From: a virus
Lineage: Duplodnaviria; Caudoviricetes
DNA: 61,913 nucleotides
Strand: one strand, 5' to 3'
IMG/VR virus record: IMGVR_UViG_3300048587_000154
Span: 1-61,913 of that record
Shown here: in pieces, positions 1 to 61,913 of the stretch
Layout: every line of letters starts with the position of its first letter
Position numbering within the stretch: the stretch's first letter is position 1
Notes under the pieces: generated by a model
What the model saw: only the letters and a program-made list of their open reading frames with translations
Told to the model about the DNA's origin: nothing
The model's database searches: none
Translations under genes and position numbers: made by a program

Positions 1-127
1 CATCAAGGTCTAGCACCTTTGCCTCAAGCGCGTTTTCGCCCATCGCCTCCTTCTTGGCGAGGATGGTGTTGTAGGTCTCGGTCAGCGTGTCGAGGAGGTC
101 TTGCTGTTCGGATGGCGTCAGCAACAT
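1..127. repeat. 127-bp terminal direct repeat, left copy (circular assembly overlap)
   Basis: Bases 1-127 (catcaaggtc...cagcaacat) are identical to 61787-61913. The repeat lies inside one continuous reading frame. Confidence 0.97.
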
Positions 128-3100: not shown

Positions 3101-6100
3101 GTTGCCAACGATGCGGTCGGCTCCGTGCGGGGTCTCCATGTCCAGCGCGTCGTTGTCGGTCACGCGGAAGCCCTGATTGCGCAAGGCTGCGGAGCGATCC
3201 TTGTTCAGTTCGTTGGCGTGAACCTGTTGGGTTTCGGGATCGGTGTCGATCAAGAGCGCGCCGTTGCCGGCTGTCGGCTCGTAGATGATCTTACCGCCTG
3301 CGACGTTCGCCAGGCGATCGACCACGTAGGCGAGCGGCATCGGCGTCGAATAGGCCTGCTCTGCGACGCTCTGCGATGTGCGGGTGGCAAGGCGCGGCTG
3401 GCGCTCGTAGAGGCTCACCAAGCGATCGTAGACCACTTCGCTACCGCGCTTCTTGCCGGCCTTGATGATGTCACGGGCAGCCAGCACAACGGCCTGCTCT
3501 ATGACCTCCTCGGCCTCCTTGTTGGCAATCTCCTCCTGCTTGGCCTTCCAGCCGTGATCCGCCAGCCACCTACGGGCCTGATTGATGGTCTCGAAGCGCG
3601 TATCAGGCGAAAGCAGATGGTCGCGAAGTTCTTCGACCACGGAAGCGGGCGTGTTAATTTTTTCGACCTCTTTTGCGGGCGTATTTTTTACCGGCTCGAC
3701 TGGCTTGGCCTCATCCGCGACCAGATAATCCTTGCTGCGGCCTTCCTTGTTGATCTGGATGCCGCCGCCCGGCACAAAGCCAACCGCTTCGGTCACACGC
3801 ACGTTGTTTTCCGTGTAGGACCGAACGCCCTTGTCATCCTCCCACACGGTGTTGCCGCGCGCATTGACGCCGATCTTGGTCCAGCGCCCGCTTTTCGTTG
3901 CCGGCGTCTCTGCCTTCGGCTCCGGTCTGGCCTTCTCGGCTGCGGCCTCGAAGGCGGCATCGGTGTATTCGTGCCCGCCCAACTCCGGCGTCTTTTCCTT
4001 GCCCAAATCGGCATGCAAGCGCGCCGCCTCCTTGGGCGATGTCATGCCGGTCGCATCGAGGCCGGGATAGTTGCGCGCGCCCTCCCAAAAACTCAACAGG
4101 TAGGGATGAATGGCCTTGCCGAAGTCGGCGGTCATAGCCTTGGCGAAATCGGCAAAACTTTTGACGCCAGACTCGATGTAAGCGCCGGCGATGGTCATGC
4201 CATCGACCAGCATTTCCGGGTCGATGCCGCTGTTGAGTTGCGACAGTTTCGAGCGAAGTCGGGCGCGGGCGGCTTCAACCTTGTCGGTGGTGAATATCTT
4301 GTTGCCGGCGAAACGATCGGTTGGCTTCTCCGTGGACTTGGCCTTCACCTGATTGTGCAGGTCCATGAGGTCGGTCTGCCTGGCATCGTCGCCGAACAGC
4401 CCGCCAACGTCCTTTTGCGGCTTGGCGGCCTTGAGCGGGGCATCGGCCTTGCGCTGGGCCATGGTAGCGTCGGAGGCGCGCTCTGCGCCGGGAATGACCG
4501 TCTGCGGCTTACCGTCGGCTCCGGCCTCGGTTTCCGGCTTACGGGCACGCAGCTTCAACAGCGCCAGGCGGGCAGTGCGCTTGTCGAAGGCCATGCCGTC
4601 AACAACGACGCCATCCTTGGAAGTCTGAATGCGGCGCTCGATGGTGGCGATCGCCGCATCGGCATTGCCGTTTTCACCAGCGAGCATGCGCTCGGCCATG
4701 ATTTCGGCCTCGGCGTTGTCGGCGCGCGGGGCTGGCTCGCTGCGGAGCGCGGCTAGTTCTTCGTCGGAGGCGAACGTGTCGCGTGCGCCGCCTTCTGTGC
4801 CCGTTCGAGCGCTTCCGCCGTCTGTTTCTTGGCCTGCACCTTGCGGCCCGCTCTCGCGGCCATCCGGTGCTTGTGCGCGGAAGTCTTGGCGATCTGCTTG
4901 CGCTTCGGATCGGTCGCTGCCTTGGCTTCCTGCTCGCGCTGCCGCGCCGTCCGCAAGTGCTGCTCCGGGGTGTACTTCATCGGACCCTACCTCATCGAAG
5001 AATGGAATAACCGGCGTTGCCTCGGCTTCGGGCTGCGGGTTGTCTGCGTCATAGCCCATCGCATCACGTTCAAGCGCATCGTCCACGCTCATCCCCCCAG
5101 TCATCAGGTCGATGACTTCTGCCATGCCAGCGGCATCGGGATCAATGCCCAATTCACGCAATTCAGCCATCGCGCGTTCGCGGGCGTTGACATGCTGACG
5201 TTCATCGGTGGCGCGGCTCTGATCTTCCCGCCAAGCCTGCGCCCAATCGTCGTCGTTGCGAGAGAACTGGTCGCGGCTGCCAATGTCGGTCGCAAGCGAT
5301 ACCAGCATGTCATCAATGGTCGAGGTGGAAAGCTCGCCATCCTCCGAGTCCTGCAAATAGCCGTTCTCGACCAGAAGCGCGCGGGCCTGATCGAGCGATC
5401 GGCCATTGGCGCGCACCAACTTGCCTACGCCTGGCACAAACACCTTGTCAGCGTCCATGTTGGCAAGCTCGCCCTTGTGATCGCGAACACCACCGCTGGC
5501 CGCAAGAAACTCGACCATCGACTGCGGGCGCTTCACACGGCCCTGTGCGTCTGCCGGCCAGCCTTCTTGCGTGGTTTTGACCTTGCCCATCGCATAGGGC
5601 GTGCGATGCGCCTTTGGCGTGGCGATCCAGTCGCGGAAGGCCTTCGGGGAAACCGACGTGATCGCGCCCACACGCTGGTTTCCCGATCCATCGGAGAACG
5701 CCTTGACGTACAGGTCGCGGGCCTGCGCGATGCTGTCTGCGCCAAGAATGACCTTATGCTCATCGAAGCGCCCGTTTTGCGTCGGCGCACGCTGGTCAAC
5801 GATGTAGATTTTCTTCGATTTCGGGTTGTCGCCCACGTACACATCGACGTGATCGCCGTCCGCGCCCGTGGTTTTCTTGATATACCCGTAATGCGCCGGA
5901 AGGACGGACTCCCATGCCGGCCCGTCGGGGTTCTTGTTGCGGCGCGTCGATCCCTTTGGGTTCTCGATCGTGATGTCTTGCCCGGCGATGCGAACATGCG
6001 CCTTCTTGTAGTTCCCAGCCTGCGCCTGTGCGTCCGACGGCTCGGCAACGCGCTGTCCAGCCGCTTCGAGGTCTTGCGAGGTCTCGATCGATGCCGGGCG

Positions 6101-26491: not shown

Positions 26492-29400
26492 CTAGTCCAC
26501 GGTTGCAGGGGTTTCCGGCACTTCGTCATTGGTCGAGGCCGGAAGCGCTTCGATGTCGTAGATGCGCGACGTGGCGTCCACCAAGTCATCCCGCGTGCCG
26601 AACGGGAAATACAGCATTTCCTCCATAAGAGCGCGGGTCAGGTCGTACACCTTGTCCAACTCATCCTTGCGCATGAGCGGCTTGGCATTCAGGTACTCTT
26701 GCCCGCGATCCTTCGCCATCTTCTGCACCTTCAACTCGCCGTCGAGGGGAGTGAAGCTCATGTAGCCCTTCTCGATGTCAGGCTCCCACAGGCAGGTTTT
26801 GCCGTTCGCGTAGACCAAGCCGGGGAAAAAGAAGGTCGAGTATTGCACGTCCGGTTGCAGGCGCTCGACACGATCGCGTTTCGAGTTGCCGCCCTCGCGC
26901 GGCCATGCAAGCTCATGAATGGCGAAGTTGTACTTCTCGGCGCGCATGCGCTCTTGGAAATACTCATCGTCCGATTGCTGGCCGAAGCGCTCGTATCCGA
27001 CCTTCACCAGCATGACGCCCGGCATCTTCGACCATTTCTTGTGGTAGTGCTTCAACTGGTCCCAGCGCTGCGAGAGCTTCATGCGGTGCCTGGCACCGTC
27101 GAGGAAGTATTTGTTGCCCTGCGCATCCACGCCAATGACCGCGATGGCCGTGTTGTCGGACTTGGCCGTGCGCCCGCGCGAAGGATCGGCGAGGATATAC
27201 ACGTTCAGCGCGGCAGGCCGAACGAACCACGGTTTCATCCATTCGGCATGGAACGTCTTTGCCGTGCCGCCCAGCGGGTTTTGAAGCATCTGCGCGTTGA
27301 CGGTCGATAGCTGCTTGACCTTGGCCTTGTCCCATTGCGCTTGCGTCATCATGACCGGCTTGCCGTCCAGCTTGCCATTGTGCGTTGCCGGGTAAAGGCG
27401 CGGCTTGACGATCCCGCGCCCGATCAGGTCGCCATAGGTGTCAGCAAAACTATTCGAGGAGCAAAAGCCCTCAACCACGTAGTTGCCTGTTTCCGTCTCA
27501 AGCCAATGCACGTCGGCAACACCGGCAGCCTCGACCTTGCTTAGCTTGATGCGCCTTGTGGTCAATTGGCCGTACAATGTCTGTGCCAGCTTCTCAAAGC
27601 GTGCCGGGGCGATCTGCGCGAGGAAGCGATAGCGCTCTCGCCATCCTCCGTTGATGAGGAACACACAGCGGTCGTTCCAATGCTTGGCGCTCGGCTTGTG
27701 CCACGCCTCCGACCACTCGAAGCCCAGTTCCGACAAGACGCGGCGGGTTTCGTTGATCAATTCCGGGTGCGCCATCGTTTGCGTGATGGTGACCGCTCCG
27801 CTTGGGTGGTGTTTGTTCTTCTTGATGCTGCCTTCGCCGTCGAAGAAGCCGGCCAGCCAGCCGGCATCGCGGCCTTGATCCTCCTCGATCGGATCAACCA
27901 GTTCGCGCAATGCGATGAGCCTGCCGTCGCATTTCTTGTTGAGGAATGCTCGATCCTTCCTGACGTGCGCAGAAAGGCCGAGCGGAGCGTATTCCGGGCC
28001 ACCGCCATGCGGCCCGCGCCACCATTTGTGATCATCCGTGCAAACGACGGAACGGCCATTGTCCAGATGGTAGCGGTTGACCGCCTGGCAGAAGTGAACG
28101 CCACGGTTCACAACCTTCGCAGGGCGCAGCCAGCGCTTGCCGTCTCGAAGCTCCCAGCCAACGACTGTATCGCCTATGCGAACGTCTGCGATCGGCTTGT
28201 GCGACCAATCTCCCATCAAGATGCGCTGGTCGCCGCGCGTGCAATAGCGCGTGCCCACCATCCATTCCCGGCCCTCTGCGGTGCCAAGGTTGGTCGATAG
28301 CTCGTAGCTCGATGTGGTCTTTGCCACCTGCTCCGGGGTCGTCACCGACTCGCGCGTCACCATGTCGTCGTAGTTGCGCAGCGCAAAGTGCTTCGATGTC
28401 GGTTGCCCATCGACCACGCCCCAGCCTTCAACCGTGGCTTCCTTGGGGTTGCCCTTGCGCCGGATCGTGAAAGCCTGCTCCGACCAGATGGGAGCCTCGC
28501 CCTTGGGCTTCATCCAGCAGATGTCCGGGTAGATCATCCGCATTTCCGATGTCTCGAACTCGCGCCTGATCTGCGCGACGAACTTCTTTGCGATGGCTGC
28601 CGTGTGGGCAAAGATGCCGATCGTTATCTCCGGGTCATTGATGATTTCCTGCACACACCCGGCAAGCGTGATGATGGTCGAGTTGTGGGTGGTAATGTGC
28701 TGGCGACCGGTAAGGTATAGGCCATCGGTGCGCGCCACCTGAATACACCGCACCGGGACGCTGGCTACCGGCTCAACGCTGATGATGGCGTGTCGCCCGG
28801 AGCGTGTGCGTTTGGCATTCGACGCCCGCGCCTGTTTTCTTGGCAGGTGAAACACGGCTGGACCGTCGGCCTGCACTTGGAAGCTCACCTGATAGTACGG
28901 GTAGTCATCGCCCTTATATTGCCCAACTGGGCGACGGATCGACGGCTTGAGGCCGAGACCGGCAGCTAGGTCGAATACGTCATTTGCGAGCCGTTCCGTC
29001 GCATTGCAAAATGTCGCCGTTCCCCGTCCATCGCAGTGGCCGTCCGTGTCCATGAGACCGCGCAACAACTCCCAACGATCCTCTATCGATGCGCATTGGT
29101 AGGGGCCTGGGATGTGCTTGTTGGTGAACGTTCCCGCCTCACGAAGAAGGGCCGCAAGACCATAGATGCCGACCGCAATACCCCTGCCGCGCCGACGACG
29201 GGTCCGGTGCCCAAGCGCCTCGATCCTTTCGATGATCGCGTTGTCGAAAGGATCGTTGGCTATAGCCGCCGCGCCGCGCGCTCCATCCCCAAGCCATGCG
29301 CCGAGCACATAGGGATGGAGCGGCAATGGCGATGATGATGCGCCAAAGTCCAGCGCAGCAGCCACGGGTACGCTAGGCCACACCGCGCCCTTGATGAGCC

Positions 29401-30010
29401 GCGCATGATCGACCTTCTTCATCAGCGTCCGCGTATCGATAGTAACCCTGGCTCGACCGGCTCTCTTGTTGCCGCTCACCCGCGCGCGGTTGGCGATGTC
29501 CACTGTCCACAGGTGATCGCCGCTGCACACGATGCTCTCACCCTTGTCGAAGGTCACGCGGTAGCAGTCGGCGTCGGTGAAGATCGGCGTTTGGGCCACA
29601 ATGCGGGTTGGCTTCCCGTCGGGGCCGAACACCTCATCGCCAACCTTGAGGTCGCCGAAAGGTCGCCATCCGAGCGGTGTTATCGTCGGTGTTTCAAGAC
29701 ATTCGGCTTTGTAATGGTAGCGCGCCCATAGGTCCAAGTGGCCGTCGGGATCGCCCTCGACCTCGCGGCAGCGATCGTAGAGCCATGGGTGGAAGGCGTC
29801 TGTGCGCGCCAAGATGTTTGTCAGCAGGAAATATCGATCGACCGCGCCGAGGTAGGCGATATCCCCGATCGCGCCCACCTCGGCAATTTGTGTGTAGAAG
29901 TCCACGGCCTCCATGAAATCCATGGCGTGCAGTTCGCCAATCTCGGCATAGCGCACAAGATCGGGGCTGGCGGATGCACGGTACAGGGTGCCTTGGTACT
30001 TCTCGAACAT
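26492..30010 (-). CDS. terL: Terminase large subunit with two inteins (1,172-aa precursor, about 566 aa spliced)
   Basis: After removing inteins: P-loop WARYHYK/ST, Walker B YDD, GTRY; nuclease DPS..SD.TA and DDLVDA. Start placed at MFEKY. Confidence 0.9.
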   Translation of the reverse strand: MFEKYQGTLYRASASPDLVRYAEIGELHAMDFMEAVDFYTQIAEVGAIGDIAYLGAVDRYFLLTNILARTDAFHPWLYDRCREVEGDPDGHLDLWARYHYKAECLETPTITPLGWRPFGDLKVGDEVFGPDGKPTRIVAQTPIFTDADCYRVTFDKGESIVCSGDHLWTVDIANRARVSGNKRAGRARVTIDTRTLMKKVDHARLIKGAVWPSVPVAAALDFGASSSPLPLHPYVLGAWLGDGARGAAAIANDPFDNAIIERIEALGHRTRRRRGRGIAVGIYGLAALLREAGTFTNKHIPGPYQCASIEDRWELLRGLMDTDGHCDGRGTATFCNATERLANDVFDLAAGLGLKPSIRRPVGQYKGDDYPYYQVSFQVQADGPAVFHLPRKQARASNAKRTRSGRHAIISVEPVASVPVRCIQVARTDGLYLTGRQHITTHNSTIITLAGCVQEIINDPEITIGIFAHTAAIAKKFVAQIRREFETSEMRMIYPDICWMKPKGEAPIWSEQAFTIRRKGNPKEATVEGWGVVDGQPTSKHFALRNYDDMVTRESVTTPEQVAKTTSSYELSTNLGTAEGREWMVGTRYCTRGDQRILMGDWSHKPIADVRIGDTVVGWELRDGKRWLRPAKVVNRGVHFCQAVNRYHLDNGRSVVCTDDHKWWRGPHGGGPEYAPLGLSAHVRKDRAFLNKKCDGRLIALRELVDPIEEDQGRDAGWLAGFFDGEGSIKKNKHHPSGAVTITQTMAHPELINETRRVLSELGFEWSEAWHKPSAKHWNDRCVFLINGGWRERYRFLAQIAPARFEKLAQTLYGQLTTRRIKLSKVEAAGVADVHWLETETGNYVVEGFCSSNSFADTYGDLIGRGIVKPRLYPATHNGKLDGKPVMMTQAQWDKAKVKQLSTVNAQMLQNPLGGTAKTFHAEWMKPWFVRPAALNVYILADPSRGRTAKSDNTAIAVIGVDAQGNKYFLDGARHRMKLSQRWDQLKHYHKKWSKMPGVMLVKVGYERFGQQSDDEYFQERMRAEKYNFAIHELAWPREGGNSKRDRVERLQPDVQYSTFFFPGLVYANGKTCLWEPDIEKGYMSFTPLDGELKVQKMAKDRGQEYLNAKPLMRKDELDKVYDLTRALMEEMLYFPFGTRDDLVDATSRIYDIEALPASTNDEVPETPATVD
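27452..28243 (-). mobile_element. Intein 2 in TerL (264 aa, Cys1, one LAGLIDADG motif)
   Basis: GTRY|CTRGDQ...CTDDHKW...LAGFFDGEG...NYVVEGFCSSN|SFADTY. Confidence 0.85.
28682..29707 (-). mobile_element. Intein 1 in the TerL P-loop (342 aa, class-3 type, LAGLIDADG endonuclease)
   Basis: HYK|AECLETP..TP.GW...DHLW...LGAWLGDG...LRGLMDTDG...VRCIQV...ITTHN|ST. Confidence 0.92.
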
Positions 30011-30020
30011 CGCGTCGCGT

Positions 30021-30998
30021 TTACACGATGTGCGGCGGCGACGACATGATCGCAAAGATGCGGTGGATCGCCATATCCACCTGCTCAAGCCCCTTCTGGC
30101 CGGCATACCAGTCTTTGTTCGACAATACCCAGCCGCACAGTTCGGAAATGGCAATGCGTGCCGCTGCGAGATTGCCCAGCATGTGGATATTGCGCAGATC
30201 GCGCTCCTTCTCCGACCAGTAGCCGATCGCTTCCGCCTTGCCGTCGCCGGTCTCCTCCTTCATGCGCTTTTCGAAATCCTTGGCGCTGCGCTTCATCACT
30301 TCCTCACGGAGTGCGGCGGCTGCACCGTCCTCTGCGGCTTGGGTCTTGGGGCTGTCGATCCTCCCCGCCATGAGCGCAAGAATGTCAGCGAGCGCTGTGA
30401 ATGCTTCATCCGGGTCCGGGTCTGCCCCAACCTTTGACTTGGCTTGGAACTCCATCAGGACCGCCAGCGCGGATGACAAGGCCGCGTCGAGTTCATCCCT
30501 GATGTGCCTCTTGCTGGCCTGGCGGTTGTCACGATCCATCTGCACGTCATCGCGACCGCCGTTGAGAACTCGGTTGATGGCTGCGTCGAGGTCGTTGAGG
30601 CATTCTTCGTCAAGGTCGGGCACACCCTCGCCAAGCGAGACTTTGATGGTGATGCAGCCGGGCGGCACCTCGATGTCGTCCCACGCCTGCTCGTAGTGCG
30701 CCCGCTTGCCGTCGTCGGTATCGGCGATGGCCTCGTTGTGGGCGTCGATCGCCTCGCTTATGGCCTTGGCGAAGCCGGGGAACAATGCGCCCGTGCTGGC
30801 CGCACCGCCGCCGCCATCCATGGTGTTTGGGGCGGCGCTCATCACGACGATGCCGTTCTTGATGTAGCTCTCAAGCTGCGTCGCCTGCGCGATGATGTCG
30901 GCGGTCTGCATGCCGTATCCGTGAGCGTCCAAAAGCTGCCCGATCAGTTGCGCCCGGATCGCGACCGCTTCATTCGCCTTTTCGTATTTCTTGCCCAT
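30021..30998 (-). CDS. Hypothetical protein (325 aa)
   Basis: AGGAG RBS; long ORF with typical codon bias. Confidence 0.75.
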   Translation of the reverse strand: MGKKYEKANEAVAIRAQLIGQLLDAHGYGMQTADIIAQATQLESYIKNGIVVMSAAPNTMDGGGGAASTGALFPGFAKAISEAIDAHNEAIADTDDGKRAHYEQAWDDIEVPPGCITIKVSLGEGVPDLDEECLNDLDAAINRVLNGGRDDVQMDRDNRQASKRHIRDELDAALSSALAVLMEFQAKSKVGADPDPDEAFTALADILALMAGRIDSPKTQAAEDGAAAALREEVMKRSAKDFEKRMKEETGDGKAEAIGYWSEKERDLRNIHMLGNLAAARIAISELCGWVLSNKDWYAGQKGLEQVDMAIHRIFAIMSSPPHIV

Positions 30999-32235: not shown

Positions 32236-32415
32236 GGTTTTCCTCGTTGGACTGCTGTGGTTTGGCGCTTGCAGGGCATCGTGCATTCTCAAAATGTATC
32301 ATTTTTGTGTTGACGGTCGTTGGTGCTTGGTTGATTGCTGGTGTTGCGCTTCCTGTTTACGGGGAGCCAAAACCTGCGGGTAGCGCGCATGGTGAGGAGG
32401 GGTGGTGCGATCTTG

Positions 32416-44950: not shown

Positions 44951-45682
44951 TTAGTGAAGCGCTGCCCCGGCATCCTTTTCGGGGTCAAGCTCCGCGCCGG
45001 GGTCTGCTGCATCGAACTCGGCGTGTACTTGGTCTACGTCCTCGCCATCGGCGTCAGGATTTGGCGCGGCTCCGGCCTCCGTGTCCTCGGTATCCGTGTC
45101 AACCACGTCATCCTCGCCGTCCTGTTCGCCCTTGATGAGCGTTTCGTCGCCGACCGCCGCATCCATTTCCAGAATGCGCTTGTACTCATCCATACCGTTT
45201 CGGAAGGCTTCAAGCCAGGCTTGGCCCTGCTTGCTCTCGACGGCGTAGGGGATCGATCCTTCGCCCTCACCGCGTAGCGCCGCCATGCGCCCATTGTGTG
45301 CGGCGGTCTCGATTGCCGGTGTGCGCCCATCGACGTAGGCGAACAGGTCGAGTTGCTTCTTCTCGATCGCAAAGCCCAAGATCGCCAGATATTCGAGGGT
45401 CTTTACCAGTTCGACAACAAGTTCGTCGCGGTCGATGCTCGACTTGATCGCCAGCGCCCGCTTGGCTGCCTTGATGTGCAGGCCCTTGGCCTCGACGTGC
45501 TTCACGACATTGCGATAGCTGCCGGTCTCACTCTCCAACCGGGTCTTGGCGCGCGCCAGCTTGCCAAGCTGGACGGCAGCTATGGCGCGATCTTCCGGGC
45601 CGTTGTGCAGCGGGCCGGGACGATCGCCTTCATCTTCTTCGGGTTGCTGCGCGCGAGCAGCCTTCTTTGGCGCTTTCACCAT
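44951..45682 (-). CDS. GapR-like nucleoid protein with acidic tail
   Basis: HN motif, K..G...KA.K.A....K..Y...LG..Q.DLF; GGAG RBS. Confidence 0.55.
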   Translation of the reverse strand: MVKAPKKAARAQQPEEDEGDRPGPLHNGPEDRAIAAVQLGKLARAKTRLESETGSYRNVVKHVEAKGLHIKAAKRALAIKSSIDRDELVVELVKTLEYLAILGFAIEKKQLDLFAYVDGRTPAIETAAHNGRMAALRGEGEGSIPYAVESKQGQAWLEAFRNGMDEYKRILEMDAAVGDETLIKGEQDGEDDVVDTDTEDTEAGAAPNPDADGEDVDQVHAEFDAADPGAELDPEKDAGAALH

Positions 45683-45704
45683 AGGTTTCAGTCTCCGTTG
45701 TGGT

Positions 45705-45971
45705 TTAGGTCGAAAGGTCGTTGCGGATGATGGCAAGGAGCTTGTCCAGCGGCTCATCACCTGTTGCCAGGCTAAGCGCTTCGGAAACCGTGATCTTTCC
45801 AGTCTTGATGAGGAGGAAGATTTTCAGCGCGCCGTCGGCGGTGCGTGTCCCGGCTTCCAGCTTCGATAGCTGGCCCTGTGTGATCCCGCAAAAATCGGCC
45901 ATTTCGCGTTGGCTCATGCCGTTCTGTGTGCGGAACAAGCGGATATCTTCGGAAGTCAGGATTTGTGTCAT
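45705..45971 (-). CDS. Cro/XRE-family HTH regulator
   Basis: IR.FR...GMSQ.EMA...GITQ..LS.LE.G. Confidence 0.85.
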   Translation of the reverse strand: MTQILTSEDIRLFRTQNGMSQREMADFCGITQGQLSKLEAGTRTADGALKIFLLIKTGKITVSEALSLATGDEPLDKLLAIIRNDLST

Positions 45972-46049
45972 ACCCAAGCGATGCCGGCAGAATGCGATCT
46001 AGTCAATGCCCTTGGAATGTTCTGCACCGCTGATGCTGACAATCGATCC

Positions 46050-46465
46050 GGTTTTTTGCTGCTCTACTTCCTTCTTCCTTGGTTCTTAATCCTTAAGGCT
46101 TGACCTTGAGAGGAGGGAAGCGAGGGGGTTAAAGACCCCCTACCCAAGCAGACAAATCAATGTCCACAAGGGGAGGAGGATCGCTTGCACAAACTTGACC
46201 TCTCGTTTCGGTCGCTCGTTCGGCAGGGTGCCTTTCGGAAACCCGTCCTCTGTTTCAGGCTGCACCGTAGGACTTTCGACCCCCGCGCACGCGGCTACGC
46301 CTGCCAGATTTGCACTGGTCTGCCGCACAAAACGAACGGGAGGGGACGCATCGGGACTTGAGGGGACAGTTGGGAGACGCTATGTATTGGCCTCACTGTC
46401 CGATATCGGCTGCGACACCTCTCGGATAGTTCTCACGCCTCGGTCTTTGCAGGACCGGGGCGTTA
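46050..46465 (-). ncRNA. Candidate ~410-nt structured RNA (primer-RNA-like)
   Basis: Several GNRA-capped stems, a long-range helix with G-U pairing on this strand, a G-tract and a purine-rich tail; no credible ORF. Boundaries inferred. Confidence 0.55.
46357..46385 (+). promoter_or_regulatory. sigma70 promoter of the small antisense RNA
   Basis: CTTGAG-N17-CTATGT, one mismatch per box to CTTGAC-N17-CTATAT. Confidence 0.65.
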
Positions 46466-46472
46466 CCTTTTT
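46391..46472 (+). ncRNA. Candidate ~80-nt two-hairpin antisense RNA
   Basis: Stems 46395-46430 and 46435-46463, each completed by a G-U pair on the + strand, followed by TACCTTTTT. Confidence 0.6.
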
Positions 46473-46546
46473 AGAGCGCGACTCCCCGCACATCGTCAAT
46501 CGAAATTATTTTTCGTATTGCTATCGCGCGATGCCCGTGGCATTGT
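46471..46546. promoter_or_regulatory. Divergent promoter pair with a TTCGTATT motif between them
   Basis: Leftward TTGACG (46499-46494)-N17-CTCTAA; rightward TTGCTA (46518)-N17-CATTGT; motif at 46512-46519. Confidence 0.5.
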
Positions 46547-46578
46547 TCCACACGGCATAGCAACTGGGGAGTTCAAGA

Positions 46579-46983
46579 ATGCCTAAGCAAATGTTCACGC
46601 CACAAGGCCATCTAACCCGCCGCATGAAGCGGTTTTTGAAGCGCGTCGTGGTCGAAAACCATCATCCCGAAACGCCACTTATCCACGGAATTATCAACAG
46701 GCGCGCGGAAATCGTTGCAGCTTGGAAATACTACGCCGTCGGCGGTCGTATCGACATCCACCGCGAGGGTCGCGACTGCGACCATACCGCCTATCATTCG
46801 GTCTACAGCATCGATGTTCCAATCTCTGTTGTCGCTTGGGTGCGCGATGAGGCGGAACATCGTTCATGGCTCGATGGGCCGGAGCGGGTCTGGTTTGCCG
46901 CACCAAGCGGTCTATGCGAAACCGGCAAGAGCATTGCCATTTTCTCGCGTCCCTCATTCGTGCAGGGCGACGGCTGGCGCTGA
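46579..46983 (+). CDS. Hypothetical early protein
   Basis: GGGGAG RBS; first gene of the rightward operon. Confidence 0.65.
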   Translation: MPKQMFTPQGHLTRRMKRFLKRVVVENHHPETPLIHGIINRRAEIVAAWKYYAVGGRIDIHREGRDCDHTAYHSVYSIDVPISVVAWVRDEAEHRSWLDGPERVWFAAPSGLCETGKSIAIFSRPSFVQGDGWR

Positions 46984-47357
46984 TGCGTACCTTTACCCCC
47001 GAATACCTGCGGCTGATCGAGTCGCGCGACAAGGCACGGCCTGCCGGCGCTGATTATGGTCTCTCGCGCCCGCATGGTGGGCCGAGCTTCCCGACCATCA
47101 TTGAGGCGCTGGACATGTGGAGCGAGTGGCACGCCGACCACCCCTTTGACGGGTCGCGCGGCAACCTTTTGCTCGATCTGGCGCTGGGCGATGCCTTTCG
47201 TATGTTGATCCAGTTGACCGACAACAAGGCGCGCATGCGTTGGATCGAGCGCCAGATGCCGATCGACCACATGGGGTTGCCGCCCTATCACGCCGCCTTG
47301 GCGCGGTGGTGGATGGCGCTCTACGATTTTCAACAAGGAGACAAGACGAATGGCTAA
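46983..47357 (+). CDS. Hypothetical protein (124 aa, MRTFTP)
   Basis: TGATG overlap. Confidence 0.6.
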   Translation: MRTFTPEYLRLIESRDKARPAGADYGLSRPHGGPSFPTIIEALDMWSEWHADHPFDGSRGNLLLDLALGDAFRMLIQLTDNKARMRWIERQMPIDHMGLPPYHAALARWWMALYDFQQGDKTNG

Positions 47358-48438
47358 AAACCCGCGCTGGGCGTGGTGGGAAAAGGCTCTCACGGCTCGC
47401 GACAAAGGCACGCTCGAAAGGCTGCTTGGAACCCCGGAACTGCCGCTGCATGGCGATGAGTACCAGATTGGTTACTTCCGCATGCTCGACAAGGAAAAAA
47501 AACGCTGGGTGCCTGTCGGCATCTACAAGTTGGGCAGCGTCGATGTCGCCATGGTGGACAACGAGGAAAGCGATCGTGATCTGGTCGAGCTTTTCCATTG
47601 GTGCTGCAAGCATCCGGTCACCTTTGCGGCCTACAACGCCGCGATCAAGGGTGGCGGTTGGGCTGATGAGCCGGCGATTTCCCCGCAAGACGACAACACC
47701 AAGAACATGTCGGAGTTCGAGCGCCTTAACCTCGAATACCAAGGCGAAAAGGAAATGTGCGAGGAGTTTCTTAAAACTCCAATCACCACGCAAGAACAGG
47801 CCGACAAGGTGGCGATCTGGAAAAACCGCCTGACCAAGATCAAGGGCAAGGCCGAGACGTTCCACAAGGTCGAGAAGCAACCTCACCTCGACGCCGGGCG
47901 CGCGGTCGATGACAAGTGGCGCGACCTTAAGGAAGAACCCGACAAGCTCAACAAGCGGCTCCTCGCCCACATCAAGCCATTCCTCGACAAGAAGCAGCGC
48001 GAGGCCGATGAAAAGGCCCTCAAGGCGCGCGAGGAGGCCAAACGCATCGCCCGCGAGAAGGCGGACGCGGATCGGCGCGCGCAGGCCGAACAGGATCGCA
48101 TCGCTACACAAGCGGCATCGGAGGCCGAACGCGAGCTTGCATCCCGCCAGGCGCATGAGCGCGCCGAACAGGAGAAGGCCGATCTTGAGGCGCAAGAGGC
48201 TGCCGTCAAGGAGGAGGCTAAGGGCGAAAAGGTTTCTGCCGGTCGTACCGGCGCGAAGGTATCCAGCCGGAAAAGGCGCTACGGCAAGGTGAACGACTAC
48301 AAGGCGGCTGCGGTCGCTCTTGTGGAGTTGAAGAACAGCGAGTTGATCGAGCTTATCGACAAGATCGCGAACCGCGCTGCAACCGATGAAATGCCGTTCG
48401 ACGGCATGACGATTGAAACGGAGACTGTCTATGTCTGA
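47350..48438 (+). CDS. Coiled-coil recombination-module protein
   Basis: AAGGAG RBS; EK.PHL.AGRAVD.KW and an A/E/K/R-rich coil. Confidence 0.75.
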   Translation: MAKNPRWAWWEKALTARDKGTLERLLGTPELPLHGDEYQIGYFRMLDKEKKRWVPVGIYKLGSVDVAMVDNEESDRDLVELFHWCCKHPVTFAAYNAAIKGGGWADEPAISPQDDNTKNMSEFERLNLEYQGEKEMCEEFLKTPITTQEQADKVAIWKNRLTKIKGKAETFHKVEKQPHLDAGRAVDDKWRDLKEEPDKLNKRLLAHIKPFLDKKQREADEKALKAREEAKRIAREKADADRRAQAEQDRIATQAASEAERELASRQAHERAEQEKADLEAQEAAVKEEAKGEKVSAGRTGAKVSSRKRRYGKVNDYKAAAVALVELKNSELIELIDKIANRAATDEMPFDGMTIETETVYV

Positions 48439-56022: not shown

Positions 56023-56322
56023 ATGTTGAAATTTGCCGCCGCATTCTATGCGTTGTTCGTTTGTAGTGCGACCGCCTGCGATATCTTTACTGGGGAAGGC
56101 TCCGAGTTCGTCCCCGGAGCAACGCTTACATGGCATCCCGACGGGATATTCACACTCGCCGACTCGGATGGGTCGAAGGACTATGTTTTCCAGTCCACGG
56201 GAATGACTGATGTTCCCTACTCCATGGGCGTCTCGACCAAGGATAAAAACGATGTCGTCTTGATCCGCGAGCTTGATGGCAAGTGGATCATCGACATGGT
56301 GGTTTTCACCTGCGCTCATTGA
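56023..56322 (+). CDS. Secreted or lipoprotein-like 99-aa protein, inverted in the late operon
   Basis: GGAGGA RBS; signal peptide ending SATAC. Confidence 0.65.
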   Translation: MLKFAAAFYALFVCSATACDIFTGEGSEFVPGATLTWHPDGIFTLADSDGSKDYVFQSTGMTDVPYSMGVSTKDKNDVVLIRELDGKWIIDMVVFTCAH

Positions 56323-59300
56323 CGGCTGGCCTTGACGTAGGCCTTGCGCGCCTCGCGCATGGCGTCCAACTCGGCCTTTTCCAGTTCATCAAGCCGCTTC
56401 TTCTTCTGCGCCGCCGCCATGCTGTCGTCAGCTTCGAGTCGGCGGCGCTCTTTGTTCAGTGCCTTGCGCTGCTTTTCTGCCGCCTTGAACGCACCTGCCG
56501 CCTCAAGCTCTGCCGTGTGCGACTTCCGATAGGCATCTGCCTTTGCCGTCTGGCCGCTCTCGTTGTAGGTTTTCAGATACCCCTCTGACGCCATGACGGC
56601 CTCGCGCTCGCGGTAGTATTCGGTGCGCTGCGAATTTTCATCAATCTCGCCATAGAAGTTGCGCACCCACGGCGTCTTGCCCGGCTCAAACTCGCCCACA
56701 AGCGCGTTTTCCGCCGTCTGCTCGACACCAGTAACGAAGCGGCCAAGCCCGCCGACGAAGTATCCCCACAGATGCTCCAACGTGTCGGGGTGGATATCGA
56801 CCGCGCCTGGCACCACCTCATCACCGCCGCTTGTCCAGTTGATGAGTTCGGCCAACTTCCTGAATGCCGGGTGCGTGGTCGAGAACGCTTGCGAGCTTTC
56901 CGGCGCTGGCGATCGATCGAACGGATTGCTGTCCGGGTAGATCGGTGATCCCGCGAAGTTCTCGTTGCTGATGATATCAACAGCGGGATCGCCAATAGTC
57001 GGCGTCACCATGGAAGCCATGGAGCCGGAGCCGATCGGGTTGAAGGCGTCGAAAGCAACGCGGATCGCTGACAAGATGCCCGTCATCGGGTCTTGCGCGC
57101 CCGAAGCGATGGCCGCGCCCTGCAAGCCCAAGTGATGGAAGGCGTTGTAGCCATAGGCCATCGGGAACGAAACGTATTTCTCGGTGCCGGGGATGAAGAA
57201 CACATACTGGCGTTCGAGCTTGTAAGGCTCGTTTTTCAGCATCTTCTCATAGTACGACTCGCCGTCGTCATCCGTGCCGGAAAACAGCATGTTCCAAACG
57301 TGCTGCATCATCCCGCCAAATATGAACGTGGCGATCGCCGCGCGCACCGCCTTTGAGCGCACCGCCCTCGATCCGACGTTGTAAGCGCCCTGCGCAGCCG
57401 CGTTGAAGAACACGAACCATGCGTTCATCGCCGGGCCAAGCTCGCCATGCTTCTTGAAGTCCACGGTCAGGTCGCGCGCCATGAACGCGGCTTCCTTGGC
57501 CGTGCGGCCCTGAATGTTGCGGGCTGCCGCATAAGAGGCCAGGCGGATGCCGTTTTCGCCAGCATCGTTCAAATCGCCAACGAATTTGGTGACGGCGCGG
57601 TACGCCGCTTTCATGGGCGTGACGCCGTTGACGGCCTCGGTCATCTGCTTTTGCAGCTTGTGCAGGTTTTCTTCCAGCGTGGCGTAACCGTGGAACGTGA
57701 TCTTGCCGCCTGCCTCGACATACTCTGCGGCCATCTTGTCCCAAACACCGTCGCCAGCCTTCTTGCGCGACAAACGCCACAATGCGCCCATCGCCTGCGG
57801 GATGTTCTTCGTGATGGTGGCGATCTGCTTGACCGAAAAGCCTTCGTCCAGCAGGTGCGTTGTGCCTGTCTGAATGTCCCTGATGATGTTGATCGGGGTG
57901 AAGGCCGGGTTGGCGCGGGTGTTGACGATCGACTGCCACACGGTAAGCGGGCGCACGATCTTGGAGAGTGTTCCCAGTTCGGCCATACCCATCTTGCGCA
58001 GCGCGAGGCCGATCTTCGGATCGCGGAAGCGGATATAGAACGTCCGTCCGCCCACCTTCGCGGCCAACACGTCATCAAGGTTCGAGAACGGGTTGGGCAC
58101 GCGGCGATAGGTGACAAGACCATCCTTGCCGATCACGCGCTTGAACACGTCCGGGGCTTTGGTGATGTCGCCAAGGAACTTGTCATCGCCCGACCAGTAG
58201 ACTTGCGCGATATGCTCGCCTTCCGGGTCGAACTCGTTGATGAAGCGCGCCATGGCCTTGCCGACGGCGTTCTTGTGCTGGCGCAAGATCGATTGCTCGT
58301 TTTGCGTGATCGCATGCGCAAGGATGTTCTCGGCCTCGGAAAAGCGGCCCATGGCAACCTTGAACTCATCACCGCGCACATCGAAGCCGCCAGCGCCGTG
58401 ATTGTGCCAGAAGCCGTCCGATGTCATGCCCTCCATGCCCTTGAGGGGCACGTAGTTCTTCCACTGCGTCGTCAATAGGTCGAAGGTCTCGGCGCTGATG
58501 AGACCGGCCTTGCGCTGGTTCTTCAATTCGGCATCGATCATTTCCCTGATGGAGCCGGCAGCGATGCGCAAGGCGCGGTGCTTTTCCGGGTCGCTGCGGG
58601 CGTCCGCGATGATTTCGCGCACCTGATCGATTGACATGCCGGAAGCGCCGACAACCGACGAGTCGAAGATCGCCCGGTAGAACTGGCTTTCCTGCGGGTG
58701 GCGCATGCCGACGACGCGGTTCCGCTCCTCGGCGTGCAGGGCGTAGAGGTACTTGTGCAAATCCTCCAAGCTCGCGCCACCATCCGCCAGCGCTTTCACT
58801 GCCGGCGCGACATAGGTGTCGTGCATGCGCTCGATCTGCGGCAGCGCCCGATCTTCCATCAGGCGGGCGTTCAGATAGGCGTCGTTCAACTCGGACAGCT
58901 TGTAGCCGCCGCGCTCCTGCATCATGCGCAGCGGGTGAAGATAGTCGATCCACTTGCGGGTCAGGTAATCGCCAAAGCTCTCGCCGTCATCCTTGTGACT
59001 GCGATCCTTGGTCGTTGATATGCCCTTGAGCGTGGCCGTAGTGTTGCGAAGCATTTTGGCAATGCGCTGGCCCACCAATGCGCCAGGCGCTTTGCTCGGC
59101 TCGATCTTCGGCGGCACAAACTCGGCCTTGTCTGGCATCTGCATTTCTGCGGTGATGGAAATACGGTTATCGTCATAGATGACGTAATTGTACGTGCCCT
59201 TGCCGTCTGAACGCGATCCCCGATCGAGATAACGATGGCCGGGGATGCCAGCCGCACGCAAAGCTTCGGATGCGGCGCGATCGTTTGGAACAGTCTCACG

Positions 59301-61913
59301 CGGATTAACCCTTGCCATCAACGATCCGGCAGGAGGGGGGGAGCCAAGATCAACGGTCAAATACTTGTAGAGGCTGGAGAAGGAAACATCCCCCAGCGAT
59401 CCAGACGAAAGCAAATTCGACACGTTGGTTCCGAGTGATTTCAATTTCTCCACAAGGGCGGGTGGCTGCTCGGACATTTTCTTGTCCCAGTCCAGCAATT
59501 CATGATCTTCGGGGAGGTTGACGGTATAGAGCTTGCCGAAGGTCTTGACCTCTCCCTTGCTCCACTCGCGCAACAGCGCTGCGGCGGCACGCAACGTCTT
59601 GAAGTCTCCCCAGCCGGCTTCCTTCTGGAATGATGTCAATTCGCCCGGCGAAAGCTCTGCCGACCTCGCTTGGTTTTCCACCCAGCGCGCCTTGTCGGTC
59701 AGGCTCATCCCGCTATCAAGCGCCTGACGGGCGAAGATCGCGGCTCGTTCCTCGGCATTGGTGTTGGCGATGTCTTTACTGCCAACAGCAATTCGTTTGC
59801 CGTTTACCTCTATCGAAGCATGGCGCGATGCCAGCGTGTCGCGGTAATACTCTGCGACATCGCGCCGGCCAGCGAAGTAGAGACCCCAGCCGAACGACTG
59901 GTTGCCCTCACCTGTACCGATCTTGTCGGTCGAGAAACGGCCAACCTTGTGCGGCGTGCCGTGGTAAGCCGGCTGATAATCGAAATCGCTGTCACGGATC
60001 GGGTTCACAGGCCGGGTTTTCATTTCGCCGCTGCGCGCCTTGTCGAAGATATCTTCGGCGGTGCGGTAGCCGTGACCGGCAAGCAGGTTCTTGGCGCGGC
60101 GGATCGCTGCCCTGATCTTGTCCCACACCCTGCGAAGCCCGATGTGCAGGCCGCGAACTTCGCGATTGTCATCCATGCGGGTCGAGTAGATGGCGAACGC
60201 CTCGGCCTCCAATTCCTTTTGGCTCATCTTTTCCGGGCGGCGGAACGGGTTCGAGGCGACCAACTCGCGCAGGCGGGCGTTCTCGCGCTGCAACAGGAAG
60301 CGCTCGTCCTTGGTCAAGAACAGCGATTGCAGCCGGTGGAAGGCCTCATGATAGGCGGTGCTGTCGTTGAACGTGTCCAGCGCCAGCGCAATGATGTCAA
60401 TCGCCGGATCGTAATAGCCCGCCGCGTTCCTTGGTCCGTCATCCAGATGCGCGCCCCACGCCTTAAGCGCCGGATGATCTGCCGGGATGGGGATCACGTC
60501 ATGCAATTGCGTCTTGATGCCAGCCACACGGGAGACGATTTCAAGCGCCTTGTGAACCTCGGCTTGCGTCCTGACGATTGGCTCCGGCCCGCGATCCGAA
60601 ACGACGGTGCCGTTCGGCTCCTGCCGGATCGACATTTGCCGGGTGTCCTTCTTCGGAAAGACGATCGACTGGGCAAGCTCGGCCTCACCCGGAGCGACCC
60701 AGCGCACGCCAGCGGTTTGCAGGGCTGCGAGGAGCTTCTTGGCGGTGTCGGCGTTGACCGTCGCCTCCATCTGCCCAAAGCGCTCTGTCCATAGGTCGTA
60801 GACCTTGCGCACGGCGTCGTCTGTGACCAGCTTCTTCGCCTTACGGGAAACGCTAAATTCGAAGCCCCTGTAGGTGTTCTCGACTCTCACCGTATCCTTG
60901 TCGTTGACAAGCGTCTTTTCCTCCGACTCGGCAAGGAAGCGCATGGCCTGATCGGCGTTCTGGAAGCGAATGCGCCGCTCGCGCTGCCAATCTCCCAAGT
61001 CGAACACGCGCGGCATGAGAATGCCGGGCTTGATGTTGCCCTGCTTGTCGGTGAACTGGATGATCTGGCCCTTGCCGTTCAGCCCGTCGAAGGCTGCCAA
61101 CAGATTGCCCGTGGCGATGAAACGCTCGGAACGGCCCTCGGTCGCGGCTTTGGTGAACATAGGCTCCAAGGCTTCGAGCTTGTCGTTCCATCCAGCGCCG
61201 CGAAACTGGGTGATGGCTCCGGCGTCCTCGCCTTCCTTCGGCTTTTCGAACGTGATCTGCGAGAATGGCAGAATGATCGTGCGCGAGGAGTCGGGGATCG
61301 CGATTTCAACCGACCATGAGGAGAGCGCCGTCGGGGATTTGGCCTTCTTGCTGGCGCGGATATCCAGCACGATTGCCGGCATTTCCGTATCCCCCACCAA
61401 GATCACCTGCTTGCCGATCGACATCGACCGGATGATGTTCGACCACTTCTGCAACTGCTCACGCGCCTTTGTCTGCGCGTTTTCCTTCGCCTTCGGGTCT
61501 TTGAGGCTGTCCACGGTCCACTTCGCCCAAGCCTCATGCTCGGTGCGCATGCGCTCGATGGTGCGTTCGGCCTTGATTGCGCCGATCCGCTCCAACTGGC
61601 GAAGCGCCTGCGGGAAGTTCCATGTGTCGGGGCGATGACCAAGCGAGTCGGCAACGCGATCCACCACATCACGCGGCTTCATGGCGAGGCCGACGGACTT
61701 GACCGACATACGCTCCATGTTGGCCGAAGCCTCGAACGGCGACGGGCCGAGCGACGGCTTGATTTCGGTCGATCCCAAGCTTTCGGCATCAAGGTCTAGC
61801 ACCTTTGCCTCAAGCGCGTTTTCGCCCATCGCCTCCTTCTTGGCGAGGATGGTGTTGTAGGTCTCGGTCAGCGTGTCGAGGAGGTCTTGCTGTTCGGATG
61901 GCGTCAGCAACAT
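56316..61913 (-). CDS. Giant polyvalent protein, C-terminal part: HExxH metallopeptidase, ART-like domain, LPD38-like domain
   Basis: YHEAFH (~60336-60353); YHGT..F....IGTGEG.Q..GWGLYF (~59870-59966); NP.F...N..RD, DF...G, FFNA..QG near the end. In frame with 1-7696 through the terminal overlap. Confidence 0.92.
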   Translation of the reverse strand: MLLTPSEQQDLLDTLTETYNTILAKKEAMGENALEAKVLDLDAESLGSTEIKPSLGPSPFEASANMERMSVKSVGLAMKPRDVVDRVADSLGHRPDTWNFPQALRQLERIGAIKAERTIERMRTEHEAWAKWTVDSLKDPKAKENAQTKAREQLQKWSNIIRSMSIGKQVILVGDTEMPAIVLDIRASKKAKSPTALSSWSVEIAIPDSSRTIILPFSQITFEKPKEGEDAGAITQFRGAGWNDKLEALEPMFTKAATEGRSERFIATGNLLAAFDGLNGKGQIIQFTDKQGNIKPGILMPRVFDLGDWQRERRIRFQNADQAMRFLAESEEKTLVNDKDTVRVENTYRGFEFSVSRKAKKLVTDDAVRKVYDLWTERFGQMEATVNADTAKKLLAALQTAGVRWVAPGEAELAQSIVFPKKDTRQMSIRQEPNGTVVSDRGPEPIVRTQAEVHKALEIVSRVAGIKTQLHDVIPIPADHPALKAWGAHLDDGPRNAAGYYDPAIDIIALALDTFNDSTAYHEAFHRLQSLFLTKDERFLLQRENARLRELVASNPFRRPEKMSQKELEAEAFAIYSTRMDDNREVRGLHIGLRRVWDKIRAAIRRAKNLLAGHGYRTAEDIFDKARSGEMKTRPVNPIRDSDFDYQPAYHGTPHKVGRFSTDKIGTGEGNQSFGWGLYFAGRRDVAEYYRDTLASRHASIEVNGKRIAVGSKDIANTNAEERAAIFARQALDSGMSLTDKARWVENQARSAELSPGELTSFQKEAGWGDFKTLRAAAALLREWSKGEVKTFGKLYTVNLPEDHELLDWDKKMSEQPPALVEKLKSLGTNVSNLLSSGSLGDVSFSSLYKYLTVDLGSPPPAGSLMARVNPRETVPNDRAASEALRAAGIPGHRYLDRGSRSDGKGTYNYVIYDDNRISITAEMQMPDKAEFVPPKIEPSKAPGALVGQRIAKMLRNTTATLKGISTTKDRSHKDDGESFGDYLTRKWIDYLHPLRMMQERGGYKLSELNDAYLNARLMEDRALPQIERMHDTYVAPAVKALADGGASLEDLHKYLYALHAEERNRVVGMRHPQESQFYRAIFDSSVVGASGMSIDQVREIIADARSDPEKHRALRIAAGSIREMIDAELKNQRKAGLISAETFDLLTTQWKNYVPLKGMEGMTSDGFWHNHGAGGFDVRGDEFKVAMGRFSEAENILAHAITQNEQSILRQHKNAVGKAMARFINEFDPEGEHIAQVYWSGDDKFLGDITKAPDVFKRVIGKDGLVTYRRVPNPFSNLDDVLAAKVGGRTFYIRFRDPKIGLALRKMGMAELGTLSKIVRPLTVWQSIVNTRANPAFTPINIIRDIQTGTTHLLDEGFSVKQIATITKNIPQAMGALWRLSRKKAGDGVWDKMAAEYVEAGGKITFHGYATLEENLHKLQKQMTEAVNGVTPMKAAYRAVTKFVGDLNDAGENGIRLASYAAARNIQGRTAKEAAFMARDLTVDFKKHGELGPAMNAWFVFFNAAAQGAYNVGSRAVRSKAVRAAIATFIFGGMMQHVWNMLFSGTDDDGESYYEKMLKNEPYKLERQYVFFIPGTEKYVSFPMAYGYNAFHHLGLQGAAIASGAQDPMTGILSAIRVAFDAFNPIGSGSMASMVTPTIGDPAVDIISNENFAGSPIYPDSNPFDRSPAPESSQAFSTTHPAFRKLAELINWTSGGDEVVPGAVDIHPDTLEHLWGYFVGGLGRFVTGVEQTAENALVGEFEPGKTPWVRNFYGEIDENSQRTEYYREREAVMASEGYLKTYNESGQTAKADAYRKSHTAELEAAGAFKAAEKQRKALNKERRRLEADDSMAAAQKKKRLDELEKAELDAMREARKAYVKASRQ
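61787..61913. repeat. 127-bp terminal direct repeat, right copy
   Basis: Identical to 1-127. Confidence 0.97.

Follow-up and report, generated by a model that had tools for sequence, protein, structure and literature searches.

A candidate antisense RNA with variable loops opposite the conserved structured leader of the main operon in Hyphomicrobiales phages

The phage genome IMGVR_UViG_3300048587_000154 (Caudoviricetes; IMG/VR), whose entire 61,913 nucleotides are referred to below as the window, carries at 46357-46472 on the plus strand a compact unit in which a promoter-like site is followed by a large-loop hairpin and an intrinsic terminator. On sequence grounds we hold, with moderate confidence, that this unit is a real cis-antisense RNA of ~80 nt that restrains a leftward leader through RNA pairing and convergent transcription. 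The observations that bear on this reading are the elements themselves, their recurrence and fixed placement among relatives, compensatory changes in the stems, the hypervariability of the loops, and the structure and strand of the leader. The unit occupies part of a 601-bp gap (45978-46578). On one side of this gap a gene train that accounts for about 57 of the 62 kb is read leftward, and on the other an exonuclease/RecT operon is read rightward.

In the proposed small-RNA gene, transcription would be driven by a dedicated promoter of the sigma-70 type (Ps) and stopped by an intrinsic terminator, with one recognition hairpin (H1) in between. The first ~70 nt of a long leftward transcript would find their complement in the ~80-nt plus-strand product. 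This long transcript would start at a convergent promoter, PL (-10 at 46471-46476), carry a leader of ~250 nt and run into almost all phage genes. The small RNA would lower or delay leftward expression, most likely in two ways. Pairing of the two RNAs, initiated at the loops, may lead to cleavage of the duplex or may free the downstream arm of a leader hairpin so that the leader refolds; in addition, polymerases that started at Ps would terminate on the -10 and start site of PL and interfere with this promoter. The loops would decide which leader an RNA recognises, so that variants with different loops would not cross-regulate. We infer both transcription starts, the expression of the RNA, the sign of its effect and the mechanism from the features described below.

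Ps lies at 46357-46385 (+) and consists of CTTGAG (46357-46362), a 17-nt spacer and CTATGT (46380-46385). The alphaproteobacterial promoter consensus is CTTGAC-N17-CTATAT, and promoters were scored against it on a scale with a maximum of 12.5. By this measure Ps (10.5/12.5) is the top plus-strand match of the intergenic region, followed by a runner-up at 8.5, and a scan of 45000-48000 for E. coli-type promoters found none. The pattern CTTGA-N18-CTATNT occurs once in the 61.9 kb when both strands are counted, at 0.00 occurrences expected from 100 shuffles. The predicted small RNA (46392-46472, plus strand, ~80 nt) would start about 7 nt past the -10 element and end in a T-run. Its first hairpin, H1 (46395-46430), has a 9-bp stem formed by ACTGTCCGA (46395-46403) and TCGGATAGT (46422-46430), with one G.U pair, around an 18-nt loop (46404-46421). 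The intrinsic terminator (46435-46472) combines a G+C-rich stem of 11-13 bp including one U.G pair (arms ACGCCTCGGTC, 46435-46445, and GACCGGGGCGT, 46453-46463), a loop at 46446-46452 and the tail TACCTTTTT at 46464-46472; UACCUUUUU stands directly 3' of this hairpin on the plus strand, and a T-run of the terminator is present on this strand only.

These are the elements listed by the first-pass annotation (a CTTGAG-N17-CTATGT promoter, a 9-bp hairpin with an 18-nt loop, a second hairpin and a tail), and each of them was read in its place. Its claim that both stems are perfect only on the plus strand, through G-U pairs, also agrees with the folding results. The plus strand of the unit folds at -34.7 kcal/mol (z -3.48), a value matched by 1 of 200 shuffles, and the minus strand at -29.8 kcal/mol (z -2.89) with C.A mismatches in both stems. 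A consensus scan recognised 46435-46463 (+) as terminator-like with 13 pairs, and a strict terminator scan of the whole window returned four sites, on the plus strand at 32398, 42460 and 46435 and on the minus strand at 13527. Almost no strict intrinsic-terminator-like sites occur along the ~57-kb leftward train. With its own promoter and its own intrinsic terminator, the unit has, at the level of sequence, the generic make-up of a cis-antisense small RNA.

Recurrence of the unit was assessed in ~80 related loci (designated by L numbers), which represent 60 distinct downstream stretches; some of these are incomplete and the denominator is therefore rough. The unit, with its promoter-like site, large-loop hairpin and plus-strand terminator, was found between the conserved core of the leader and PL in 12 different loci, namely the window, L046, L006, L057, L024, L035, L039, L029, L051, L042, L009 and L074. 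Since L067 duplicates the unit of L029, 13 of the 60 distinct stretches carry it, and the plus-strand terminator alone is present in four further stretches (L007, L031, L045 and L048). Promoter scores reach at least 9.5/12.5 in seven of the 12 units, where at most 28 of 1000 shuffles were as good. The distance from the end of the -10 element to the end of the T-run equals 86-88 nt in eight units, and GTCAA, corresponding to the leftward -35 element, is located 17-22 nt past the end of the T-run in seven. With this GTCAA spacing, the T-run of the terminator coincides with the leftward -10.

Multi-unit alignments were poor: MAFFT and RNAalifold applied to nine units recovered seven terminator pairs, and an alignment of seven units was structurally inconsistent. 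We therefore used pairwise comparisons and a covariance model, R1, built from the window and L046 only. R1 has one match in the window and identified the unit at the expected place and strand in L035 (E 5e-4), L051 (7e-3), L029/L067/L073 (0.02), L057 (1.9) and L024 (5.3). Matches elsewhere were found in L063 (E 0.022, with a weaker second one at E 3.2) and L015 (E 5.9), and the model also produced partial reverse-strand matches on the palindromic terminator.

The pairwise comparison between the window and L046 revealed an uneven distribution of changes over the unit. These two loci are closely related from 46355 rightward only, as leftward of this position just the universal core motif aligns, and they share 87.8% identity over 638 columns (46355-46990). 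Differences are concentrated in the loops, with 14 of 18 positions changed in that of H1 (P 1e-10) and six of eight columns in that of the terminator (P 6e-5). The H1 stem arms differ at one of nine and none of nine positions, by an A>G change that keeps a G.U pair, and each terminator arm differs at one of 11 positions, the two changes (46444 T>C and 46454 A>G) being compensatory. For comparison, 6 of 107 positions differ in the promoter-switch region and 21 of 135 third codon positions (0.156) in the adjacent gene; loop divergence amounts to about 5 times the near-neutral rate. A metagenome contig that covers 46369-46545 has all eight listed substitutions and both indels within 46405-46421, and this confinement of changes to the H1 loop points to a third loop allele. 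In a more distant pair, L006 and L057, the unit is the best-kept stretch besides the core, with H1 conserved and the inner terminator stem altered by compensation.

A specificity determinant that evolves under diversifying selection, as known from plasmid incompatibility, would be expected to leave such a loop pattern, and the loops may well play this part here. A diversity-generating retroelement was considered as the cause of loop variation and rejected, because the listed substitutions are not adenine-specific. A scan for additional loop alleles on conserved stems gave two viral and five genome stretches; these all have unrelated low-G+C contexts without a terminator and were taken as chance matches.

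The presumed body of the target transcript is a structured leader core of ~250 nt at 46092-46338 on the minus strand, where the leftward gene train begins. With its most conserved motif, 5 + 28 viral, 12 genome and 36 metagenome contigs were retrieved. The genome contigs with the core belong to Aquamicrobium, Phyllobacterium, Hoeflea, Aliihoeflea, Pseudaminobacter, Limoniibacter, Bradyrhizobium, Ensifer, Kaistia, Mesorhizobium and Pseudochrobactrum, and some of the core-carrying relatives are integrated prophages. An alignment of 33 distinct leader copies (~250 nt) has an alifold consensus energy of -88.2 on the minus strand versus -61.7 on the plus strand. Its predicted pairs include 341 G.U and 46 A.C on the minus strand, and 90 and 146, respectively, on the plus strand; as G.U far exceeds A.C on the minus strand, the fold was assigned to it. 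In the 33-pair consensus 92.9% of cells are paired, compared to 47-52% in slid controls, and the covariation score of 0.462 (0.12-0.17 in controls) was reached by none of 500 shuffles. Judged from this covariation, the leader is a real conserved minus-strand RNA structure, and the long leftward RNA that had been postulated from the window itself is real in the sense of this conserved structure.

No Rfam family matches the leader at 46092-46338. A model of its 5' half (R2, 130 positions) found one copy in the window (E 4.6e-26) and single copies in 3 of 151 sampled genomes of one carrier's order, the carrier included, which fits a sporadic prophage element. The first gene after the leader varies by locus and may encode a helix-turn-helix (HTH) protein, DUF5131, an HNH nuclease, methyltransferases or, in L035, a DnaB-like open reading frame (ORF; by eye). 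Because the first downstream gene differs among loci, the leader belongs to the start of the operon and not to one gene. An antitermination function was considered for the leader as well; the strict scan found one minus-strand terminator-like site in the whole window, so this reading has no support from internal terminators.

Among deposited phages, blastn found only one noncoding match, that of 46231-46330 to two Synechococcus phage records (78.6%), and both matches lie in the syntenic gap upstream of the RecT operon of these phages. The two records (L002 and L003; Yong-M2-251 and Ssp-JY39) share leader and gene order with Hyphomicrobiales prophages, and on this basis their assignment to cyanobacterial hosts may deserve a second look. 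In a prophage of a Pseudochrobactrum megaplasmid (L080), the leader is located between a DUF5131 gene and a nuclease/RecT operon that extends up to the end of the prophage; 4-5 kb further left, beyond a restriction endonuclease and TcmP, a pair of LexA-family repressor and Cro occurs. A metagenome contig (L078) contains at 780-1417 an array of clustered regularly interspaced short palindromic repeats (CRISPR), and since one of its spacers (~967-998) matches an invariant leader segment, the leader element appears to be targeted by hosts.

The leftward promoter PL is predicted at 46471-46500 on the minus strand (ATTGAC, 46500-46495; N18; CTCTAA, 46476-46471), with a transcription start probably near 46464, and is the best minus-strand promoter match of the intergenic region. 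In most loci, including those lacking the unit, GTCAA, which reads TTGAC on the minus strand, is found right of the core and gives way to an A/T-rich tract. The edge of the PL -10 is 8-43 nt from the core in most unit-less loci and 141-164 nt from it in the window, L046, L024, L035, L039, L029/L067 and L051. As each single promoter match is weak, the case for PL rests on this conserved position.

An inverted repeat surrounds the -10 of Ps at 46364-46401 (minus strand), with the arms GGACAGT (46364-46370) and ACTGTCC (46395-46401). Its minus-strand fold in the window has -15.7 kcal/mol (z -3.69), and a comparable repeat, in which the Ps spacer is paired with the first bases of the small RNA, is significant in eight of ten loci (z -2.2 to -3.9). 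Both arms are contained only in the leftward RNA, the Ps spacer being untranscribed from Ps. The arm that falls within the small RNA shares positions with the H1 stem in the window, L046, L006, L057 and L024. The repeat could act as an operator of Ps or form a leader hairpin in competition with anti-H1. The variable spacing of the arms (9-24 nt, by eye) weakens the operator reading, and their presence in the leftward RNA only, together with the overlap with H1, suits a refolding switch under antisense control.

Several observations weigh against an antisense RNA that controls the leader. About 43 of the 60 distinct stretches, some of them incomplete, lack the unit, and given that most relatives do without it, it seems dispensable for leader function. 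When the 12 units are taken together, the summed fold energy has no strand bias (-437 on the plus strand versus -434 on the minus strand), and G.U pairs number 29 on the plus and 33 on the minus strand. In the window terminator, UACC stands between the stem and the U-run, and because of this separation termination may be leaky there. Folding of the leader (509 nt) with its first 82 nt blocked or free left 382 of 427 downstream positions unchanged. The best rightward promoter downstream of the unit in the window scores 8; as no good rightward promoter is available there, Ps could also feed the rightward operon. The PL score of the window is modest (9/12.5) and was equalled by 28 of 200 shuffles. 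The initial proposal that the unit ends where the leftward transcript starts draws its support only from comparison with the relatives, in which the position of PL is conserved. Finally, a role in lysogenic immunity is doubtful in this phage, since the complete genome has no match to Phage_integrase (tyrosine integrase), a Resolvase-type recombinase, a Peptidase_S24 repressor, ParB_N or AAA_31 (ParA-type).

Four other explanations were weighed against the same data. Ps may serve as an upstream promoter of the rightward exonuclease/RecT operon, in which case the hairpin and terminator would form an attenuator, the short RNA would be a by-product, and read-through, whether regulated or leaky, would be what matters. 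Such a role would suit Ps as the best plus-strand promoter of an intergenic region with no convincing rightward promoter downstream in the window, the offset of the U-run by UACC, and the co-inheritance of unit and rightward region in L046, whose homology to the window starts at 46355. We nevertheless regard an attenuator as unlikely. Strong separate rightward promoters lie past the unit in other loci (by eye, TTGACA-N17-CATAAT in L006 and similar ones in L009, L029, L042 and L057); L006 and L057 keep the unit while their rightward genes are not alignable; and the spacing of the unit is fixed to PL (T-run 17-22 nt from GTCAA in seven of 12) and not to the rightward genes. Furthermore, most relatives have the same operon without the unit. 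Replication control of the ColE1 type would make the leftward leader a primer or origin RNA and the small RNA its RNA I, which would set replication rate and incompatibility. The proposed geometry is the same, in that a short antisense RNA lies over the 5' end of a long non-coding RNA with structure, and the loops are hypervariable. Scans of about 40 window proteins gave no above-cut-off match to families of replication initiators, polymerases, helicases or primases; RNA-based prophage origins are described for mycobacteriophages (PMC7157519). However, neither the RNAI nor a ctRNA model matches, the leader continues into genes of which the first varies by locus, the first leftward ORF of L035 starts like the N-terminus of a DnaB helicase (by eye), and the core is carried by integrated prophages, all of which leaves this type of control with a very small probability.

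It is also highly doubtful that the plus-strand unit is not expressed, or not functional as RNA, and that what is conserved is a 5' extension of the leader with three hairpins, its promoter and T-run resemblances being by-products. Both strands do fold about equally well overall, and the inverted repeat that encloses the Ps -10 is meaningful in the leftward RNA alone. Against such an extension stand the recurrence of the promoter hexamers, the 17-nt spacer and the fixed distance in 7-8 of the 12 loci, the T-run on the plus strand only, and the terminator U.G pairs, which turn into C.A mismatches on the minus strand in the window, L046, L029, L039, L009 and L074. Small RNAs made of a hairpin plus a terminator are common, and the RNA could act in trans on host or other phage transcripts, its position opposite the leader being incidental. 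A weak resemblance to Burkholderia ncS54 (17.4 bits, E 0.35) would point in this direction; this score is at chance level, with the gathering score of that family at 43. Nowhere else in the window does the H1 loop occur when up to three mismatches are allowed, and the placement between PL and the core is constant in 12 diverged loci, so that a trans-acting role is assigned only a slight chance. No Rfam family reached its gathering score anywhere in the window, and at E<=10 the region 45900-46650 gave chance-level matches only (MIR815, ncS54 and a human lncRNA). An 8-nt repeat, ACCTCTCG, found at 46198 and 46417, has a frequency within chance.

The preferred antisense reading was compared with known systems of RNA-based control. 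Recognition in ColE1 proceeds via hairpin loops, and loop changes create new specificities. As with RNA I and RNA II of this plasmid, the unit would encode a short antisense RNA, equipped with a promoter and a terminator of its own, that overlies the outermost 5' part of a structured non-coding RNA of much greater length and stops near the start of this RNA, here at the predicted PL. In contrast to the three stem-loops and 5' tail of RNA I, two hairpins are present here, one of them being the terminator, and the long RNA continues into ~57 kb of genes. The Rfam RNAI and ctRNA models have no match at E<=10 in 45900-46650 and none at gathering score in the window. The unit therefore resembles ColE1 RNA I in geometry only. 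The original description of the unit as RNA I- or ctRNA-like accordingly holds for the predicted antisense geometry and for the self-contained unit found in 12 loci, and not for family membership, given the lack of a model match, the two hairpins and the absence of ParB_N and AAA_31. RNA II is described as a primer and RNA I as its modulator in PMC7157519.

The likeness to repABC plasmids, which belong to the same host order, lies in the proposed small antisense RNA with an intrinsic terminator. The ctRNA of these Rhizobiales plasmids (Rfam ctRNA_p42d) is located between repB and repC, acts on the leader of the downstream gene and determines incompatibility. Differences are that the locus described here has no rep or par genes and no ctRNA_p42d match, that the target is a phage operon leader, and that the neighbours are an HTH gene and the exonuclease/RecT operon. 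In the attenuation systems of pT181, pIP501 and pAMbeta1, the antisense RNA binds the 5' part of the nascent leader and changes the downstream helices. The inverted repeat at 46364-46401 would similarly offer the leader an alternative helix, whereas no minus-strand terminator is predicted past the target in 45000-48000, nor within the leader by the strict scan.

P22 sar and lambda OOP are phage cis-antisense RNAs that act on lytic transcripts. In PMC7067206, OOP is cited as a phage antisense RNA, and the antisense RNA STnc6030 of prophage BTP1 is reported to exclude the cognate phage and not P22. Such cognate-only exclusion matches the specificity suggested by the variable loops of our unit. 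In contrast, sar, OOP and STnc6030 overlap coding regions or ribosome-binding sites, and the RNA proposed here would pair with the outermost 5' part of a leader that is not translated, the first start codon following ~400 nt later. RNAs of the sar and STnc6030 type also presuppose a temperate carrier and expression from the prophage, and no lysogeny genes were detected in this complete genome. Face-to-face promoters are known from coliphages 186 (pR/pL) and P2, where both make mRNAs. The likeness lies in convergent promoters tens of bases apart, ~72 nt in the window, a distance at which transcriptional interference is expected; the difference is that one of the two transcripts would stop here at a terminator placed on the opposing promoter. 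A terminated transcript of the lambda PR'-tR' type was rejected, as only the ~4-kb exonuclease/RecT operon lies downstream on the plus strand and the structural and lysis genes are on the opposite strand. By analogy with the precedents in PMC7157519 and PMC7067206, both replication and exclusion readings are possible in phages.

A more far-reaching version of the antisense reading, which we consider quite improbable, would make the leader RNA of Hyphomicrobiales phages, putatively undescribed so far, a replication primer or origin or a polymerase-modifying leader. A subset of these phages would then have added an RNA I-like antisense RNA, whose hypervariable loops would define mutually blind incompatibility or exclusion groups among otherwise near-identical phages, and a specificity system made of RNA only would operate at the head of a phage genome. 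If control by the small RNA proves true, one RNA of ~80 nt would sit at the choke point of about 57 of 62 kb. Related phages could then ignore or exclude each other by RNA alone, and a simple handle to switch off the main operon of the phage would be available. The analysis also exposed the target itself, a conserved structured leader in Hyphomicrobiales phages and prophages that has no Rfam family.

The window represents a complete phage genome of 61,913 bp with direct terminal repeats, and the leftward train holds nearly all genes outside the rightward operon. Its first gene (45705-45977, minus strand) encodes a 90-aa HTH_3 protein of the Cro/CI type (Pfam HTH_3, E 4.2e-9), the sole HTH_3 match in the genome. 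It is accompanied by genes for an unknown protein, GcrA, an MT-A70 methyltransferase and HNH nucleases. Further leftward are the genes for the terminase, portal, major head protein, tail fibre and ejection proteins, followed past the terminal repeat by those for a giant polyvalent protein and the endolysin. The rightward operon of ~4 kb, which includes exonuclease and RecT, is headed by a gene of 134 aa without a family (46579-46983, plus strand). This gene is co-inherited with the unit in L046 at ~91% identity, and a protein search with it found no relatives in viral contigs.

Other features of the genome were noted. Two large minus-strand frames of 2565 aa (2-7696) and 1865 aa (56316-61913) meet across the terminal repeat and together resemble a giant polyvalent virion protein, with a DarB-like region, InPase, N6 methylase, Strawberry-notch-type helicase and LPD38. 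The large terminase frame (26492-30154, minus strand, 1220 aa) has terminase matches at both ends, with a weak HNH match between them, a layout suggestive of an inserted element. Nested palindromes (TTGCTAT...ATAGCAA, ATCGCGCGAT and ATGCC-CGT-GGCAT) occupy 46518-46563 between the divergent promoters and are likely to be operator sites; relatives have other repeated motifs at the matching position. A second conserved noncoding motif, absent from the window, consists of ACGAAGAAGC and GCCGATCTG separated by 5-8 nt, with flanks that look complementary. In 21 of the 60 distinct loci, for example L005, L019, L042 and L057, it lies past the rightward promoter and ahead of the first rightward gene.

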